A DNA stretch of 64,000 nucleotides from a bacterium. Lineage in GTDB: Bacteria; Bdellovibrionota_C; UBA2361; CALJRW01. The stretch spans positions 16,186 to 80,185 of the forward strand of contig JANNBC010000009.1 in the NCBI GenBank assembly GCA_031385045.1. The letters run 5' to 3'. A program made the translations under genes and the position numbers. Each line of letters starts with the position of its first letter. Position 1 is the first letter of the stretch. Under the pieces are notes generated by a model. The model was not told the origin of the DNA and ran no database searches. It was given only the letters and a program-made list of their open reading frames with translations. Below, piece by piece: positions 55,617 through 64,000 of this stretch.

Positions 55617-57320
55617 TTACTTAGAACAAACACTCTGCACAACTGGAACTTGGTTAGTAAACTCCACGTTCAGGGCATGTTGAGCATTATTAGCTCTCTC
55701 CATCCGACCTAAAAGGTTCGCTGAAGCTCCAGCTTTCTTAACTTTGCGAATTACTTTTTGACCTAATTTGCGAAGCTCTTCTGAACCAGCTTGGTAGATA
55801 CCAATCCTGTCCTGATTACTTGTTGCAATACAAAACTTAGTATTTCCACAAGTCGTTACATTAACAGGAAGACTCCAAGTAATTCCCCAGTTAGCAGCCT
55901 GTAACTCAGAAGCCAAGGCATTTGTTCGTTTAATAAAACGCAGTGCTCGAGGACTTGAATCAAGCTTCTTCAAGTTACGATTAAACTTATTGATTAATCT
56001 TTCTTGAGCAAGAGAACCACCATCAATGCTATTTAGCAATGCTGACTGATCAAACGTGTCACAATTTAGACAAGACTGACCATCACCATTACAAATACCA
56101 CAACGATCTTTCTTAGCAGTACCATTTAAGATTCCTTTACAATCCGTACAAGAAGAGTTGTCACCACCACATACTCCACAGTTATCAAATTCTAATCCAC
56201 TGTTAGGAATACCGTCACAACCTTTGTCCTCTTCGCACTGATCCGATAAATCCTTTAAAGCGTCAGCATCATCACACTTAACACCTAAGTGATCCTCAGA
56301 ACAAATAATTGTACCATGGAACTCACAAAGCCCTTCTCCGATACCACAAGTAGTATCTAAGCTTGGGAATGATTCGTCGATATCACCATCACAGTTATTA
56401 TCTAATCCATCACAAAGCTCTGTGGTAGGCTCTTCATTACGCTCACAAGAACAGGAATTAGTAAAAGTTCCTCCATTACAAACTCCTTGTTCGCCATTGT
56501 CGCATAAAGTCCCTGGAAGAGATGTGCCATTTGGAACACCTAAACAGTCAGCACAAGCTGAGTTATCTCCATTACAGACTCCGCACTCATCAACTACTTT
56601 ATTATTTGCATTGGGAACATACGGACAAGAGTCTGTTCCGATTTTTTCAATCGCTAAATCGACATCTCGATTTAATCCCCAAATTTTCATTTGAATCGCA
56701 CCTATTGATTTGAAATCAACAGGAAAAGCTTTCCCCGCTGCTTTTACAAAGCTACTGTAAGGAATACTTTTTTTAGTAGCACTTGGAATCGCAACATTTA
56801 AGATGATCGAAGCCGATGATGCATGACCTTCATCTGAGTACATAATAATTTCAATCTCAGTTGGTTGCTGATTTGCATAATCAAAACTGATAATATCGAG
56901 ATCTATTGAAGTTGAACCATCTTGAGTAAAGTCGACTCCACCTAATCCCTGATAATTAACAATTGAGCCTCCAGTTTGATCACCATCCCAAGTAACTGTA
57001 GCTACGCCACTAGCGCCTTGGTCTTGAGAGAATGTTAAATATCCAATTTCACTGACCATTCGATTTGGACGATTAACTGTTCCAGCGAATGCGAAGACAT
57101 TAAATTCACGATTACTGCCAATCACTGAACTACGGCCAGTGCCATCTGCAGGAATATTGATTTGGCCAAAGGAAGCAGAACTATCGGGAGTACCATCATT
57201 GACAACGAGTGCATCGCCATCAAATTCATCAATTGTTATGGCCTGCGCAGAAGAAACAGCTAGCAAGCAGATGAATATAGAAATTAAGAACCCTGTTAAA
57301 GGAGTTACTGAGAATCTCAT
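55617..57320 (-). CDS. Secreted Cys-rich protein with CGVCxGD repeats and a putative metal-binding ELCDGLDNNCDGxxDE motif
   Basis: Signal peptide ending AQA; three CG(V/I)CxGD units; basic helical C-terminal domain. Confidence 0.85.
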   Translation of the reverse strand: MRFSVTPLTGFLISIFICLLAVSSAQAITIDEFDGDALVVNDGTPDSSASFGQINIPADGTGRSSVIGSNREFNVFAFAGTVNRPNRMVSEIGYLTFSQDQGASGVATVTWDGDQTGGSIVNYQGLGGVDFTQDGSTSIDLDIISFDYANQQPTEIEIIMYSDEGHASSASIILNVAIPSATKKSIPYSSFVKAAGKAFPVDFKSIGAIQMKIWGLNRDVDLAIEKIGTDSCPYVPNANNKVVDECGVCNGDNSACADCLGVPNGTSLPGTLCDNGEQGVCNGGTFTNSCSCERNEEPTTELCDGLDNNCDGDIDESFPSLDTTCGIGEGLCEFHGTIICSEDHLGVKCDDADALKDLSDQCEEDKGCDGIPNSGLEFDNCGVCGGDNSSCTDCKGILNGTAKKDRCGICNGDGQSCLNCDTFDQSALLNSIDGGSLAQERLINKFNRNLKKLDSSPRALRFIKRTNALASELQAANWGITWSLPVNVTTCGNTKFCIATSNQDRIGIYQAGSEELRKLGQKVIRKVKKAGASANLLGRMERANNAQHALNVEFTNQVPVVQSVCSK

Positions 57321-57771: not shown

Positions 57772-58575
57772 CTATCTTTGCTGACCACACTTAACAGGAT
57801 CAAAAGATGGTAAGGTGATTTGCAATTTATTGTTATGAATATCAAGCGGCATAGAACGAACCTTAGCAACTCCAACCAAGGCATTCCCTAAACCTGATGC
57901 CCCTGCAACATTTTTCTCAGTAAAGTATGATGAAATGGCCGCAGTATTAGCATCACTAACTGAATCGGATAAAATAGTGATATTCTCCCCATCAATACTT
58001 ACTAACTGCACATAGTAGACACGATCTTCTGGTTTAAATGAACGACCAGGATTTTTATACTGCTCAACAACTTCGACAACAGTAACATAAGGCTTATCTT
58101 TACAGCTATTCTTACCACTAGAATCCTTGCAGACTTTCAGTAAATACAACTCCGCAGATTCGGGCGACTTATAATCTAAAGTTAAATCTTCGCCAAAATT
58201 ACTAAGAACCTTGAAATATTTATCAAAGTCAGTCATCACATCACCGAGGCGATCCTCTTTTTTTATCGTTACCGGCTTGGATAATTTTCCCAGAACTTCT
58301 GTTACGGCCTCCTCGCCTGTCGCTATTGATTCTAAGGAAACTAATAATTTTTTATTCTCTGAGTAAAGCATATCCTGTTTGATGGCATCAAAGTCACCAA
58401 ACATACAATTATTAGTAACCTTTAAGTTCATTGGAAACTTACCTTTAAGGTACTGATCTTTTAATCCACTTTTAGCAATCGTAATCGACTTCACCGGCAA
58501 GTCGGCGAATACCGTAACCAAAGGAAGTATCGTAACAAAAAAAACTGCTAGCGTATTTTTAAATAGGTTTTTCAT
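57772..58575 (-). CDS. Hypothetical exported protein, four Cys
   Basis: Start MKNLFKNTLAVFF at 58575 gives a signal peptide; the ORF track start 58644 is less likely. Confidence 0.8.
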   Translation of the reverse strand: MKNLFKNTLAVFFVTILPLVTVFADLPVKSITIAKSGLKDQYLKGKFPMNLKVTNNCMFGDFDAIKQDMLYSENKKLLVSLESIATGEEAVTEVLGKLSKPVTIKKEDRLGDVMTDFDKYFKVLSNFGEDLTLDYKSPESAELYLLKVCKDSSGKNSCKDKPYVTVVEVVEQYKNPGRSFKPEDRVYYVQLVSIDGENITILSDSVSDANTAAISSYFTEKNVAGASGLGNALVGVAKVRSMPLDIHNNKLQITLPSFDPVKCGQQR

Positions 58576-58670
58576 ATTTGAATTAAGAAAAGAAAAAGAA
58601 TGCGTAGTAAAACTTAGCCCTTGATTTTTACAAGGATAAGACATGATTGTTTGCAGGGCAAGACAATAAC

Positions 58671-58713
58671 AAAAAGGGGCACAGATTAGACTAGCTAATC
58701 CTGTACCCCTTTT
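58671..58713 (-). terminator. Terminator-like hairpin after the Hint-domain gene
   Basis: Minus strand AAAAGGGGTACAGGATTAG..CTAATCTGTGCCCCTTTTT. Confidence 0.7.
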
Positions 58714-58750
58714 CGATTCTTTAAGAACATTGTCTCAAAGTTGCCCCAGA

Positions 58751-61700
58751 TTATTTTTTATTAATAATCTCTTGGGCTGTTAGGTCACCAGTTACAATTC
58801 CATCAGAAAGTACCAAGTGGTTTTCTAATTCATTCTCAGCATCTAAACGAATATTAATTACTCGTTGGTCAGCCTTAATTGGTAATGCTACTGCTGAAAT
58901 TACAGCAACTTCACTACCGCTTAATGTTACAACATCACCAGCGACTACTTCTCTAGCTGTAATGATACCTCTCTTAGTATACACTGGGTGTTTCTGAGTA
59001 ACCTTAACAACTTTACTGCCGGCAGTAATTGCAATGATTGGCTCTTCCTCATTTGATTCCAAGACACTCTTCACTTTCACTGCTTTACCAGTTACAGGGT
59101 TACGCACCTCTTCGCCAGCGCTAATACTTTCGATTGTTTTCTCTGTCCCATTAGCCATTAGAATTTTTGTTTCAGGAACGAAACAACCTTCTAAGCGTAA
59201 TGAAGAACAAGTCCAACAAGCTTTACTGAAGTCAGCTGGATTAGTAATCGGTGTGTTTTTATCACCGTAGTACTTAAAGGCTGTATCAAACTGACCGAAT
59301 GTATCAGACTTATTAATAAAACCATTTTCAGCATGTCCAGAGAATCCGAAATAATATTCGAAACCTGTTTTGTTAATTGGTTTATTAACAAAGCTATTCT
59401 CCATCTGTTGAGTCCAGCCTGCAGGACGTAATCTGCTAACTGTAGTTCCATTAGGACCTGCAATTTGAACTTGACTCCAACCCCAAGCAGAATCAACTGT
59501 CATGGTTTGGCCATCTTTATTAACATCAATTCCGCGAATTGCTTCAAGGATTTTAATCCCTTCATTCAATAGCGCTTGAGTTACGTTCTGGCCTTGAGCA
59601 TTTACAGCACTAGTAAAGAAGCTTGTAAAACCCTGTCCAGCAACATCCTGTTTCTTCTGGAAGCCCATCATACAAACTCTCATTTGATAGATGTCGTAGC
59701 CATCATCTTGACCAGCATAAGTAGTCTTACCATGCTGACTTTCAGGATAGCCTAAGCCTACGCAACAGTTCGGTACTCCCCAGTTTGGATCATTAACCGT
59801 ACGGTCACAATCATCAGGTCCAAGTTCACACTGAGCGTTACAAACTGCTCCTGGAAACTTATCCTTATAGATCTGACGGATATTAGTTCCATCACACATC
59901 TCTGTTGGGCTATTGATAATACCATCGCCACAAACCGGAGTTTTACACAGATTAGAACAAGCATCATTGTTGACAGTATTGCCATCATCACACTGTTCTG
60001 GGTTCTGCTTAATACCATCGCCGCAAACGGCAGTGATACATTGGTTACTACAGTTATCATTGTTAACTGTATTACCATCATCACACTGCTCACCTGCTTG
60101 TTTGATACCATCACCGCAAACCGGAACTGTACAAGTATTTGTACAAGCATCATTGTTTACAGTATTGCCATCATCACAAAGCTCTGGAGTTTGCTTAATA
60201 CCATCGCCACAACGTGGAGGCTGACAAGTATTAGAACAAGCATCATCATTTACAGTGTTACCATCATCGCAAAGCTCTGGAGACTGAACGCATCCATCAC
60301 CGCAACGAGGAGTAGTACATTCGTTAGTACAAGCATCATTGTTAATCTTGTTACCATCGTCACACTGCTCTGGACTCTGCTTAATACCATCACCACAAGC
60401 TGGAACTGTACAAGTATTTGTACAAGCATCTGTGTTGTTAGTATTACCATCGTCACACTGCTCGCCTGTTTGTTTAATACCATCGCCACAACGTGGAGGC
60501 TGACAAGTATTAGAACAAGCATCATCATTTACAGTGTTACCATCATCGCAAAGCTCTGGAGACTGAACGCATCCATCACCGCAACGAGGGGCAGTACAAG
60601 TGTTTGTACAAGCATCATTATTAATCTTGTTACCATCGTCACACTGCTCACCTGTTTGCTTAATACCATCACCGCAAACCGGAACTGTACAAGTATTTGT
60701 ACAAGCATCATTGTTTACAGTATTGCCATCATCACATAACTCGGGAGACTGAACTAAGCCATCACCGCAACGAGCATTTTGACAAGTATTAGAACAAGCA
60801 TCATTGTTTACAGTATTACCATCATCGCACTGCTCGCCTGTTTGTTTAATACCATCTCCGCAGATTGCAATTACGCATAAGTTGCTACAGCTATCATTGT
60901 TAACAGTATTGCCATCATCGCACTGCTCGCCTGTTTGTTTAATACCATCGCCACAACGTGGAGCTGTACAAGTATTTGTACAAGCATCATTGTTATTTGT
61001 ATTACCATCGTCACACTGCTCACCTGTTTGCTTAATACCATCGCCACAACGTGGAGGCTGACAAGTATTAGAACAAGCATCATCGTTTACAGTGTTACCA
61101 TCATCGCAAAGCTCTGGAGACTGAACGCATCCATCACCGCAACGAGGAGTAGTACAAGTATTAGTACAAGAATCATTATTTACAGTATTACCATCATCGC
61201 ACTGCTCATTTGATTGTTTGATTCCATCTCCGCAAACTGGAACTGTACAAACATTTGTACAAGCATCAGTGTTTACATTGTTACCATCATCGCACTGCTC
61301 ATTTGATTGTTTGATTCCATCTCCGCAAACTGGAACTTTACATGTATTAGAACAAGCATCTGTGTTTACAGTATTACCATCGTCACACTGCTCAGTTAAT
61401 TGTTTGATTCCATCTCCGCACTTAGGATTATGGCAAGTATTCGTACAATCATCATTATTAACAGTGTTACCATCATCACACTGTTCGCTAGAATCATTTA
61501 CAACGCCATCACCACACTTAGTACAACTTAAACGACAACCAGTATCATTTGGGTTAGCGTAATCACAAGTTGTTCCTGGGAAAATTTGAACATCATACTG
61601 ATTATGAACAGCATCACCGCAATATGGTAAACGACATTCTGCACGACAACCGTCAGTAGTATTAGTGTTACCATCGTCGCACTCTTCATTCCCAAGGCGA

Positions 61701-61915
61701 ATACCATCACCACAATATGTGCAGATAGTACATTCACAGTCCGAACATCCACAAAGAACTGGATCCGTAACTGTTACTAGCGTACTGCCCGGAGGACAAA
61801 AATTGTTAGTATTTCCTGCAAAATCTTGCGCGCTGACAGTAGAAAAAGCGAACAAAATTGATAAAAAAAGTATTGAAACAAAAGCCTTTACTGACTTTAA
61901 GTTTGTATTTTCCAT
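58751..61915 (-). CDS. Secreted Myxococcus-type Cys-rich repeat (DUF4215-like) protein with C-terminal Hint domain
   Basis: Signal peptide; CGDG..EQCDDGN...C...C repeats; G-CFVPETKI, VTQKHPV, DGIVTGD. Confidence 0.92.
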   Translation of the reverse strand: MENTNLKSVKAFVSILFLSILFAFSTVSAQDFAGNTNNFCPPGSTLVTVTDPVLCGCSDCECTICTYCGDGIRLGNEECDDGNTNTTDGCRAECRLPYCGDAVHNQYDVQIFPGTTCDYANPNDTGCRLSCTKCGDGVVNDSSEQCDDGNTVNNDDCTNTCHNPKCGDGIKQLTEQCDDGNTVNTDACSNTCKVPVCGDGIKQSNEQCDDGNNVNTDACTNVCTVPVCGDGIKQSNEQCDDGNTVNNDSCTNTCTTPRCGDGCVQSPELCDDGNTVNDDACSNTCQPPRCGDGIKQTGEQCDDGNTNNNDACTNTCTAPRCGDGIKQTGEQCDDGNTVNNDSCSNLCVIAICGDGIKQTGEQCDDGNTVNNDACSNTCQNARCGDGLVQSPELCDDGNTVNNDACTNTCTVPVCGDGIKQTGEQCDDGNKINNDACTNTCTAPRCGDGCVQSPELCDDGNTVNDDACSNTCQPPRCGDGIKQTGEQCDDGNTNNTDACTNTCTVPACGDGIKQSPEQCDDGNKINNDACTNECTTPRCGDGCVQSPELCDDGNTVNDDACSNTCQPPRCGDGIKQTPELCDDGNTVNNDACTNTCTVPVCGDGIKQAGEQCDDGNTVNNDNCSNQCITAVCGDGIKQNPEQCDDGNTVNNDACSNLCKTPVCGDGIINSPTEMCDGTNIRQIYKDKFPGAVCNAQCELGPDDCDRTVNDPNWGVPNCCVGLGYPESQHGKTTYAGQDDGYDIYQMRVCMMGFQKKQDVAGQGFTSFFTSAVNAQGQNVTQALLNEGIKILEAIRGIDVNKDGQTMTVDSAWGWSQVQIAGPNGTTVSRLRPAGWTQQMENSFVNKPINKTGFEYYFGFSGHAENGFINKSDTFGQFDTAFKYYGDKNTPITNPADFSKACWTCSSLRLEGCFVPETKILMANGTEKTIESISAGEEVRNPVTGKAVKVKSVLESNEEEPIIAITAGSKVVKVTQKHPVYTKRGIITAREVVAGDVVTLSGSEVAVISAVALPIKADQRVINIRLDAENELENHLVLSDGIVTGDLTAQEIINKK
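59933..61516 (-). repeat. Intragenic tandem array of 17 units (93 bp, first unit 96 bp)
   Basis: 31-aa unit like CGDGIKQxxEQCDDGNTVNNDACxNTCxxPx, counted from the translation. Confidence 0.93.
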
Positions 61916-62100: not shown

Positions 62101-63012
62101 TTACCAAATTTGCAGTTCTGTTTCTAAGGTAATGCCTTGTTTTTGGTTTACATCTTCTTTAATCAAAGAAATTAAGGCTAGGACTTCCTGAGCAAGTGCC
62201 TCCTTTGAGGGATTTACAATCCAATTGGCATGCAACTCGGATACTAAGGCATTACCTTGAGCTCTGCCCTTAAACCCAGCTTTTTCAATAATCTCTCCGG
62301 CATAAGCCTTGGGCGGATTCTTAAAAATAGACCCAGCTGAAGCTAAGGTTAAAGGTTGAGTGGCCTTTCTATAGGTCAAATGTTTTTGTTGTTCGGCAAA
62401 AATTGTTTCTGGATTTCCTGGGGTTAACTTAATTATTGCTGAAATAATAATCGCCTCTGGCGGTAATGGTGTCTGACGATAGGAGAAACTAAGACTTTTA
62501 GCATCAACAGTCTGTAAAACCGCTTGCGCATCAAAATAGCTGACCGATCTTAAAACCTGACTAATTTCTCCTAGATGTGCCCCGGCATTCATTCGGACAG
62601 CACCACCAAAAGTTGCCGGAATACCTCCAGCAAACTCCAATCCAGAAAAACCTAACTTGGAGACCTCACGAGAAAGCACCATCAGTGGCATACTACCTCC
62701 AACTTCAAAAGTATCTTCAGTCAATTGACGATAATATCGAAATCTTCGACCAAGTCTAATAACTGGTTGTTCAACTCCTTGATCTGGAATTAACAAATTA
62801 CTTCCTGCCCCAATAACTTTATAACCTAAAGAATATTCTCTAATAAAGGAAAGACAACTCGCCAACTCTTCTGGTGAGTTTGGCTCTATCAGCACAGCCA
62901 ACTCTCCACCGATTGAAAATGTTGTTAACTTTTTTCCAGAGATATCTAGTTGGACAGCACAGTTAGAAATTTTTTGAAAATCCCTAAGCCAAAGCGCTCT
63001 ATGATCAAGCAT
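62101..63012 (-). CDS. murB: UDP-N-acetylenolpyruvoylglucosamine reductase
   Basis: TFSIGG, IGAGSNLL, GLEFAGGIPAT.GGAVRMNAGA, SAGSIFKNP, HANWIVN; ATG at 63012. Confidence 0.95.
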   Translation of the reverse strand: MLDHRALWLRDFQKISNCAVQLDISGKKLTTFSIGGELAVLIEPNSPEELASCLSFIREYSLGYKVIGAGSNLLIPDQGVEQPVIRLGRRFRYYRQLTEDTFEVGGSMPLMVLSREVSKLGFSGLEFAGGIPATFGGAVRMNAGAHLGEISQVLRSVSYFDAQAVLQTVDAKSLSFSYRQTPLPPEAIIISAIIKLTPGNPETIFAEQQKHLTYRKATQPLTLASAGSIFKNPPKAYAGEIIEKAGFKGRAQGNALVSELHANWIVNPSKEALAQEVLALISLIKEDVNQKQGITLETELQIW

Positions 63013-64000
63013 ATTTATTCGCAATGTTTTTGGCAAAATTTCCGATAGAACCTGCTCCCATGCAAACTAACACATCCCCAGATCGAAACTCTGACTGCAA
63101 ACTATCATAACAATCCTCTAACGTTCCAGCATAGGAACAGTTTTGATGGGCAATACTTTGAGCTAAATTTTCAGCATTAATCTGTTCAATTTCTAACTCT
63201 CCCGCGGAATAAATATCGGAAATCATCACTTGGTCACAATGCTCAAAGCAATGCTGAAATTCATCCCAACATTCTGCAGTTCTTGTGTAACGATGTGGTT
63301 GAAAAATTACATGTACACGTCCAGCTTGTTGGCCATAGGCCTCGCTAATTGCGGAAAGTGTCGCTTTAATTTCAGTTGGATGATGTGCATAATCATTAAT
63401 AATAGTGACCCCTTGGTGACAGGCAACAATTTCCGATCTTCTAGAAACCCCTTGAAAACTACTTAAGGCATCCTTGATAATTCCCAGAGAAATTCCAAAT
63501 TCCATGGCCACAGCAAAAACACTAAGACAGTTTAACATGAAGTGTCGCCCCACTAACGGAATTTGATAAACACCTAAACTTTCCTCTTCTTTAAAAACCT
63601 CGAACTCTGTTCCTTGTGGTGAAATCTTTAAGCATTTGGCACGAAGTGTTGCCTTAGAACTTAAGCCATAAGAAATCTTCCGGCAGTTTAACTGATCGTA
63701 AATTTTACTAACTCGTGGATCGTCGACACACATTACCGCTAAGCCATAAAATGGGACTGACTTTACAAATTGATGAAAGGCTTTTTCGATCTCTTCCACC
63801 GTCCCGTAAGTGCTTAAATGCTCCTTATCAATATTAGTTACAACGGCAATCGTCGGTTTTAAGTGTAAAAAACTTTTATCAGACTCATCGGCCTCAGCAA
63901 CAAGAAAGTCTCCCTTCCCTAATTTTCCAGTGCTATTATATTTATGAACAATTCCACCGATAATTACAGTTGGATCAAACTTAGCCTCCTCCATTACAGC
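63005..64000 (-). CDS. murC: UDP-N-acetylmuramate-L-alanine ligase (5' end outside window)
   Basis: VAEADESDKSF, TNIDKEH, DYAHHPTEI, FQPHRYTRT, MGAGSI. Confidence 0.96.
   Translation of the reverse strand, partial: AVMEEAKFDPTVIIGGIVHKYNSTGKLGKGDFLVAEADESDKSFLHLKPTIAVVTNIDKEHLSTYGTVEEIEKAFHQFVKSVPFYGLAVMCVDDPRVSKIYDQLNCRKISYGLSSKATLRAKCLKISPQGTEFEVFKEEESLGVYQIPLVGRHFMLNCLSVFAVAMEFGISLGIIKDALSSFQGVSRRSEIVACHQGVTIINDYAHHPTEIKATLSAISEAYGQQAGRVHVIFQPHRYTRTAECWDEFQHCFEHCDQVMISDIYSAGELEIEQINAENLAQSIAHQNCSYAGTLEDCYDSLQSEFRSGDVLVCMGAGSIGNFAKNIANKYA

Follow-up and report, generated by a model that had tools for sequence, protein, structure and literature searches.

We analysed a 64,000 nt stretch of bacterial DNA (contig JANNBC010000009.1 of assembly GCA_031385045.1), referred to here as the window, and focused on a minus-strand open reading frame (ORF) at 58751..61915, which was confirmed and whose product is a secreted cysteine-repeat protein of 1054 amino acids with a C-terminal Hint domain. 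This domain belongs to the Hint (Hedgehog/intein) superfamily, since the fold, Cys1 and the TxxH motif were each tested and each found, and it represents a large Hint subfamily that escapes the Pfam-A and NCBIfam models used here. Members of this family end in Gly-Asp at the position of the intein His-Asn (termed GD-type below) and have a conserved neighbour, which we call the partner gene. The protein is probably an exported stalk carrying a non-splicing Hint domain of the bacterial intein-like (BIL) type, which would be cleaved at its N-terminal side via a Gly910-Cys911 thioester and be linked to the partner. The pairing of this Hint family with an exported partner suggests a two-gene processing or tagging system.

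The initial annotation of this gene had described a signal peptide, 17 repeats, a region of approx. 230 residues ending CWTCSSLRLEG and a Hint domain beginning at Cys911 (codon TGT at 59183-59185), and each of these elements was found where it had been placed. That the last of them is a real Hint domain is borne out by profile and structure comparisons. A profile built from eleven relatives (A1) matched, among the sequences of the PDB, the bacterial intein-like domain 2LWY with an E-value of 2.2e-14, the Tetrahymena BIL2 with 5e-10 and Hedgehog 1AT0 with 8.8e-4. Modelling of residues 681-1054 by AlphaFold2 (AF2) from a 130-row alignment gave predicted local distance difference test (pLDDT) scores of 88-98 over the Hint domain (fragment residues 231-374), and the tail was modelled as a helix (fragment residues 365-373); the mean pLDDT from the single sequence was 33. 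Foldseek returned 67 PDB matches at E<=0.001, the top 50 ranks of which were inteins, BIL, Hedgehog or Vint chains only. The best match was BIL2 (6Y75) with an E-value of 3.7e-10 and a target TM-score (TMt) of 0.77, and the gp41-1 intein, 2LWY and Hedgehog 6TYY gave TMt values of 0.87, 0.83 and 0.74 respectively. The absence of a predicted Hint fold, which the initial annotation had named as a reason to drop its claim, is thus not what we see. An ESM Atlas search with the Hint domain yielded generic 'Hint domain-containing protein' clusters only, which we treat as leads.

With the curated models, hmmscan gave the window protein 25.4 bits for Vint (cut-off 27), 18.5 for PT-HINT (PF07591; cut-off 27.7), 16.6 for Pfam Hint (cut-off 29.7), 19.2 for Hom_end_hint (cut-off 32.1) and 21.6 for intein_Nterm (cut-off 24.5), and no match to Hint_2 (PF13403) at E<=0.1. 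Vint reached 28.4 bits in a six-frame search; as no more than positions 1-68 of 166 are matched and the protein has no VWA domain, it is not assigned to Vint. Among the families that the initial annotation had named for such a search, DUF4215 was matched, Hint and PT-HINT fell below cut-off and Hint_2 gave no match. The same picture emerged for 120 family representatives scanned with Pfam, where only near-threshold Vint, Hom_end_hint or PT-HINT matches were found, with partial sub-threshold Hint_2 matches in two of them (26.7 and 28.0 bits; cut-off 28.4). Their N-terminal parts mostly belong to no family, the only common one being DUF4215 (11/120).

The domain had also been called non-splicing, and we agree. 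Aligned with two canonical Hint proteins of related genomes, in which the domain ends GILVHN and SIWVHN, the window protein shows GIVTGD, so that Gly1043-Asp1044 occupies the His-Asn position. Leu takes the +1 place, and the chain stops 10 residues beyond Asp1044 (last residues ...DGIVTGDLTAQEIINKK, His-Asn being absent). Since there is no His-Asn, no +1 nucleophile and only 10 residues beyond, splicing is predicted to be impossible. The acyl-shift residues are all present (Gly910, Cys911, Thr973 and His976) and are conserved in the family, in line with the earlier claim that Cys1 and TxxH are kept. We considered and rejected identity as an intein, as the protein lacks a C-terminal Asn plus nucleophile and a C-extein to ligate, and such Hint domains close variable secreted proteins instead of interrupting a housekeeping protein at a conserved site. 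At loci L038 and L042, the end varies to Gly-Asn (GIITGNLFLQ) and Ala-Asp (VVTADYYIQ), so that the Asp is not strictly constant.

The gene had been viewed as a singular curiosity, which it is not: the family comprises hundreds of clusters and the window genome itself (2.83 Mb in 61 contigs) has four Hint genes of the GD-type. Each of the four products has a signal peptide, repeats of the CGDG type and a matching end, and two of the genes are in tandem. These tandem paralogues (924 and 890 amino acids; G000:C43:124-6700, loci L002 and L004) share a single partner gene and are similar to the window protein over the first approx. 130 residues. When profile A1 was run against 1.84 billion cluster representatives, 18373 were matched at E<=1e-3, 2911 at <=1e-10 and 493 at <=1e-30. 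The counts that follow are for the best 150 representatives with 181 domain instances or, for the C-terminal columns, 142 non-gap instances. Cys1 and Phe2 are each present in 176/181, and block-B Thr/Ser and block-B His each in 179/181; position -1 is Gly in 145/181 and Ser in 21/181. At the C-terminal end, Gly is found in 138/142, Asp in 139/142 and Gln, four residues later, in 139/142. The ending GxxxGDxxxQ, which had been proposed as a way of collecting homologues, indeed recurs, since the regular expression G...GD...Q matches 124/150 representatives; in 115 of these 124, 4-17 residues follow the conserved Gln. The tail has the pattern Φ-x-Φ-Q-x-x-Φ and then a few, often basic, residues, and the profile match ends less than 15 residues from the end of the protein in 135/150.

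Only two columns of the 130-row alignment are fully invariant, namely Glu956 (fragment Glu276), at position 46 from Cys1, and His976 (fragment His296), and conservation reaches 90% or more at C903 (-8), R907 (-4) and G910 (-1); one member has Ser instead of Cys1. Comparison with a same-genus orthologue gave ratios of non-synonymous to synonymous substitution (dN/dS) of 0.12 for the Hint domain and 0.06 for the tail, i.e. purifying selection. By sequence, the family is defined by the junction C-x3-R-x2-G/C-F (the slash marking the Gly-Cys bond), the unvarying Glu46 and a short conserved helix after a terminal Gly-Asp, and its conservation is of an active-site-like pattern. Named relatives with the Hint motif come from Oligoflexaceae, Oligoflexales, Silvanigrellaceae and unclassified metagenome-assembled genomes (class Oligoflexia, Bdellovibrionota in the NCBI taxonomy). 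No description of the Gly-Asp/Q-tail signature or of the partner gene was found in a literature search, whose scope did not include Dori-Bachash et al. 2009. The Hint domain is single in 142/150 of the best representatives. The other eight (P0005, P0008, P0035, P0040, P0043, P0049, P0059 and P0151; 842-4119 amino acids) have 4-6 tandem copies, those of P0040 ending in His-Asn, and such tandem proteins are a different, polyprotein-like architecture.

The earlier statement that nothing lies downstream of the Hint domain holds within the ORF but not for the next gene, which is the conserved neighbour of the GD-type Hint family. The partner ORF spans 57772-58644, with a probable start at Met24 (58575). 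Its product gave no Pfam match (0/13 members), only a chance-level match in NCBIfam (E 0.03), a best E-value of 0.38 when its profile was compared with the PDB sequences and no usable match in ESM Atlas; a homologue search with the profile returned five unnamed proteins. Across 30 distinct partners, C57, C149, C158 and C263 are essentially invariant, and G60-D61-x-D63, E82, K161 (28/30), D184 and Y187 are also shared, D61 of this GDxD motif counting with the four cysteines as invariant. Every one of the 30 has an N-terminal signal peptide or signal-anchor helix.

We surveyed 124 genomes of the window's phylum and found 42 GD-type Hint genes in 24 genomes and 50 partner matches in 26. Both genes occur in 22 genomes, the Hint gene only in two, the partner only in four and neither in 96. 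For 33 of the 42 Hint genes, the partner lies within 600 nt downstream on the same strand, and for three more within 4 kb (two of these being tandem Hint genes with one partner); four, all in one genome, have another arrangement and two have no partner on the contig. Loci were also chosen by the Hint motif alone, using the narrow pattern [LVE]ADGIVTGD, so that the resulting 7 genome and 13 metagenome loci under-sample the Hint family; some of them also belong to the phylum set, as two identical partner proteins show. The partner was found in 5/7 named genome loci; of the two negative loci, one is on a contig that ends 378 nt past the gene and the other has no partner within 4 kb. In the metagenome loci it is directly downstream in 7/13, upstream in 2/13 and absent in 4/13, three of these four having less than 600 nt of downstream sequence. 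Neither of the two canonical His-Asn Hint loci has a partner, no other recurring neighbour genes were found across the loci, and none of the 150 representatives is a Hint-partner fusion protein.

Prediction of a complex between the linker, Hint domain and tail and the mature partner gave a score of 0.41 (runs of 0.48, 0.20 and 0.41), the best control scoring 0.01; at least 34% of contacts are common to the runs, and the pLDDT of the partner is 72 or more. The mark set for this score is reached by 58/80 solved complexes and 2/110 mismatched pairs, and at 0.60 or below by only 7/80 solved complexes and both mismatches. We take the prediction as weak support; together with the strong genomic prior it modestly raises the odds of a physical interaction.

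Several side observations concern the partner gene and its surroundings. At one metagenome locus (L066:291-1094), the gene is split over three frames, being either a pseudogene or an assembly error. Some partner-like genes away from GD-type Hint genes adjoin TadE/TadG-type pseudopilin genes, and a cassette or partner-like gene lies beside TadE/TadG (Tad+VWA) or N-methyl pilin-like genes at loci L052, L053, L047, L048, L014, L015, L018 and L008. In addition, some Hint proteins begin with a prepilin/TadE-like segment. No Tad/pseudopilin genes are near the cassette in the window genome, the three TadE genes of which are on other contigs.

In the reading that we hold to be probable, a stalk of Cys-rich acidic repeats, capped by a Hint autoprocessing domain without its splicing half, would be exported via Sec. 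After export, Cys911 would attack the Gly910 carbonyl, aided by Thr973 and His976 as their conservation indicates, and the thioester would be resolved without ligation, which would remove the 144-residue Hint-plus-tail and leave a passenger ending ...CWTCSSLRLEG. The partner may dock on the Hint domain, the tail or the junction and either gate the timing of cleavage or supply the acceptor. In passages of PMC7664689 and PMC5874633, N-terminal cleavage is described for bacterial intein-like domains without a +1 nucleophile, and passages of the former give mainly cleaved products for BIL domains. Simple self-cleavage would need neither a conserved junction nor the invariant Glu46, and neither the Gly-Asp/helix end nor a dedicated partner; we infer from this surplus that the partner binds the Hint end.

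Several points weigh against this reading. Its chemistry and cleavage site, like any role of the partner, are deductions, with cleavage read from residues only, and the oxidising periplasm could disfavour a free Cys1 thiol. Every curated Hint model is below cut-off on the window protein in hmmscan, and the complex score lies where the tool, unless there is a strong prior, would more often be wrong than right. The co-occurrence counts overstate independence, because a phylum's genomes are related by descent, and some of the loci counted had also gone into the partner profile. Furthermore, 13/50 partner-like genes are not beside a GD-type Hint gene, and the partner family may therefore have other clients. 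In the window itself, the 111-nt spacer between the two genes folds into a strong terminator-like hairpin (-42.4 kcal/mol, z -6.2), which a simple terminator scan did not flag because of its long loop, and the Hint and partner genes may therefore not be co-transcribed here; the hairpin may set a high-to-low ratio of expression between them. The distance between the two genes in other loci is 2-100 nt, or they overlap.

The initial annotation had proposed release or a Hedgehog-like outcome, with the passenger transferred to a lipid, glycan, protein or prey surface. Such transfer is possible; as an account of the whole system, i.e. with the Gly910 thioester resolved by a specific acceptor (lipid, glycan or protein Lys) to which the passenger becomes covalently coupled, we consider it rather unlikely. 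The partner would then be the acceptor, or an adaptor that presents it, and would do in trans what the sterol-recognition region does in Hedgehog. The near-invariant G/C-F junction and the conserved C(-8) and R(-4), which are unusual for inteins, suggest that the new C-terminus matters, and the gene linkage is tight. Residue D46 of Hedgehog is a functional acid. The Glu at position 46 of the window family is as conserved as the catalytic His, and the acid of Hedgehog is numbered D46 in the title of 6TYY; E956 has the same position number and is a candidate equivalent only, which we treat as a lead. BIL2, the best structural match, resolves its thioester with a Lys amine to give isopeptide conjugates without ATP, according to passages of PMC8616854, and the partner has a near-invariant Lys161 as well as an N-terminal signal or membrane anchor. 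One could thus envisage ATP-independent tagging or anchoring by two genes, in which the partner docks on the Gly-Asp/helix end and moves Gly910 either to its own Lys161 or to an acceptor presented by it, such as a membrane lipid or an envelope glycan, and to this version too we would give a small chance. The likeness to Hedgehog claimed earlier extends to the junction, but there is no sterol-recognition-like region, nor a known lipid- or glycan-binding fold; moreover, a partner present 1:1 with the cassettes fits a regulator or chaperone equally, and plain N-terminal cleavage explains the Hint features equally well.

A Hint domain that stays uncleaved and serves as a docking or folding module for the partner (e.g. 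in export or assembly) would agree with the loss of His-Asn, with the conserved helical tail as a binding element and with the weak predicted binding. Its catalytic-looking residues would then be relics, which is improbable, as Cys1, the block-B residues and also Gly(-1) are retained across hundreds of diverged clusters, and this retention points to an active site. The small exported protein beside a large secreted one, approximately one per cassette, together with the occurrence of Hint domains in polymorphic toxins (Pfam PT-HINT), recalls an effector with a downstream immunity gene. However, with only 4-20 residues beyond the Hint domain there is no toxin domain to release, as the initial annotation had rightly noted in setting this protein apart from polymorphic-toxin Hint proteins; the partners are one conserved family with an invariant Cys pattern, while the N-terminal parts of the Hint proteins share little beyond DUF4215, and the partner tracks the Hint domain and not the passenger. 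Judged by domain order, Pfam matches and partner conservation, a toxin pair is very improbable. Hardly more credible is cyclisation of Asp1044 as the main reaction, freeing the 10-residue tail with or without N-terminal cleavage. The Asp does lie exactly at the position of the cyclising Asn of inteins, and inteins ending in Asp are active, as Amitai et al. reportedly found in 2004. Nevertheless, nearly all instances have Gly in place of the penultimate His, the residue that helps the Asn to cyclise, and the tails, of differing length and with no more than a 7-residue amphipathic core retained, would be a poor fit for a signalling peptide. N-terminal cleavage of an exported stalk, linked to the partner, is therefore the reading that we retain.

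Of the kinds described so far, the nearest is probably the C-type BIL domain with PPS-1 of predatory bacteria, as judged from descriptions of it. Dori-Bachash et al. are said to have described in 2009 a C-type BIL domain with an upstream PPS-1 domain in predatory bacteria including Bdellovibrio (Bd2400 of Bdellovibrio bacteriovorus), and Bd2400 reportedly undergoes N-terminal autocleavage and has a PKD domain. As far as these descriptions reach, the two have in common a Hint domain of secreted proteins, a Bdellovibrio-related lineage and a conserved domain just upstream; in contrast, no PKD domain was found in the top 120 representatives of the window family. The Cys module found directly upstream of the Hint domain in approx. 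10 representatives (D-x-C-G-R…Y-G…N-C-C-x-G…P…C) could be PPS-1. BIL domains are given a length of 130-155 amino acids in a passage of PMC9185962, and Bd2400 is listed as an attack-phase membrane protein in a part of PMC2797640. The A-type BIL domain of Clostridium thermocellum (2LWY) has the same fold and is the best sequence-profile match. We take 2LWY to keep the His-Asn end, which the canonical neighbours L010 and L011 also keep. The 2LWY domain lies inside proteins and, unlike the window family, has no conserved N-extein motif and no partner gene. BIL domains mainly cleave rather than splice in passages of PMC7664689, as we would expect of the window protein. Membership of A-type BIL/PT-HINT was rejected on the PT-HINT score given above and on the end, which is Gly-Asp and not His-Asn.

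The Tetrahymena thermophila BIL2 domain of the BUBL1 locus (6Y75, 6TMM), the best Foldseek match, is flanked by ubiquitin-like domains, and the window junction, which ends R-x-x-G, is loosely like a ubiquitin tail. BIL2 differs in being eukaryotic and cytoplasmic, in its ubiquitin-like flanks and in its C-terminal Asn (an N143A mutant appears in the entry title), and the identity is 19%. With Hedgehog (1AT0, 6TYY; TMt 0.67-0.74), the window protein shares a C-terminal Hint domain on a secreted protein, the Gly/Cys-Phe junction, the lack of Asn and the lack of splicing. The GCF junction defines Hedgehog, and it is present here as G910-C911-F912. Membership of Hedgehog/Hog was nevertheless rejected, as the 10-residue tail leaves no sterol-recognition region of approx. 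60 residues and the Pfam Hint score is below cut-off; the window protein also differs in being bacterial and in having a separate partner gene. Pretoxin-HINT (PF07591) proteins resemble it in that a Hint domain lies in a large secreted bacterial protein with a small gene next to it, but no toxin domain follows the window Hint domain and the downstream gene is of a conserved family, not a polymorphic immunity gene.

What resolves bacterial Hint thioesters, and why many surface proteins carry a throw-away Hint domain, is largely unknown, and this family offers a clean handle on both questions in its fixed junction motif, its fixed Gly-Asp/helix end and its dedicated neighbour gene of no known family, all three conserved across a lineage related to predatory bacteria. 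Of the clues to the resolution of the thioester, the partner gene is the most promising. A partner that controlled or accepted this thioester would mean Hedgehog-type chemistry with a trans-encoded cofactor and possibly a compact protein-ligation tool. Should tagging prove true, diverse exported passengers would be covalently fixed to the cell envelope by sortase-independent anchoring, and no Hint domain before this one would have had a trans-acting cofactor dedicated to it. Even with a partner that does no more than regulate cleavage, there remains a large class of surface proteins that process themselves and that current domain libraries leave unannotated.

Features of the Hint-partner cassette (positions in the window)
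Feature	Position	Strand	Description
Secreted Cys-repeat protein with C-terminal Hint domain, whole ORF	58751..61915	(-)	1054 amino acids
Signal peptide, residues 1-29	61829..61915	(-)	putative; …STVSA/QD, read from the sequence
Array of 31-residue Cys-rich acidic repeats	59917..61483	(-)	DUF4215/TIGR02232; 17 CGDG in register; Tandem Repeats Finder (TRF), Pfam, NCBIfam
Junction region, residues 681-910	59186..59875	(-)	Cys module, variable insert, conserved linker C903-x3-R907-x2-G910
Hint core, residues 911-1044	58784..59185	(-)	Cys911, Phe912, Glu956, Thr973-x-x-His976; Gly1043-Asp1044 replacing His-Asn
10-residue tail	58754..58783	(-)	LTAQEIINKK (family motif Φ-x-Φ-Q-x-x-Φ); conserved, modelled as helix
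Strong terminator-like hairpin, then U-run, between the Hint and partner genes	58670..58715	(-)	from folding of the 111-nt spacer
Partner gene	57772..58575	(-)	267 amino acids from Met24 of a 290-residue ORF; exported or membrane-anchored, no known family

The stalk of the window protein begins with a putative Sec signal peptide, which was read by eye as a K-rich n-region, AFVSILFLSILFAF and VSA before QD (the N-terminal sequence is MENTNLKSVKAFVSILFLSILFAFSTVSA followed by QD). The 1054 residues include 96 cysteines and 19 CGDG motifs, 17 of which are at an exact 31-residue spacing (residues 166-662); at the DNA level, TRF found a 93-bp unit in 16.8 copies. Both the Pfam DUF4215 model (E 1e-117, 384.7 bits) and the NCBIfam TIGR02232 'cysteine-rich acidic repeat' model (E 2e-145, 472.2 bits) match above cut-off, each in 18 stretches. 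Residues 681-910, ending CWTCSSLRLEG, match no family in Pfam or NCBIfam and were poorly modelled by AF2 from the 130-row alignment (pLDDT 30-80). A variable insert, long in the window protein, follows the Cys module in this region, and the linker C-W-T-C-x3-R-x2-G is common to many family members. Word-based homologue searches gave one match, a paralogue, for residues 675-1054 and none for residues 681-910 in shorter proteins.

The composition profile of the window gives no sign of a mobile element and the cassette is chromosomal. Just downstream of the partner gene, at 55617-57320 on the minus strand, lies a gene for a second secreted Cys-rich protein of 567 amino acids, in which CG[VI]C[NG]GD..SC motifs recur; its MopE-like and ADAMTS Cys-rich matches are all weak, and it is not conserved beside other cassettes. 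Directly upstream of the Hint gene are murB and murC (62101-63994, minus strand), and further downstream of the cassette are the housekeeping genes carD, tsaD and ksgA.

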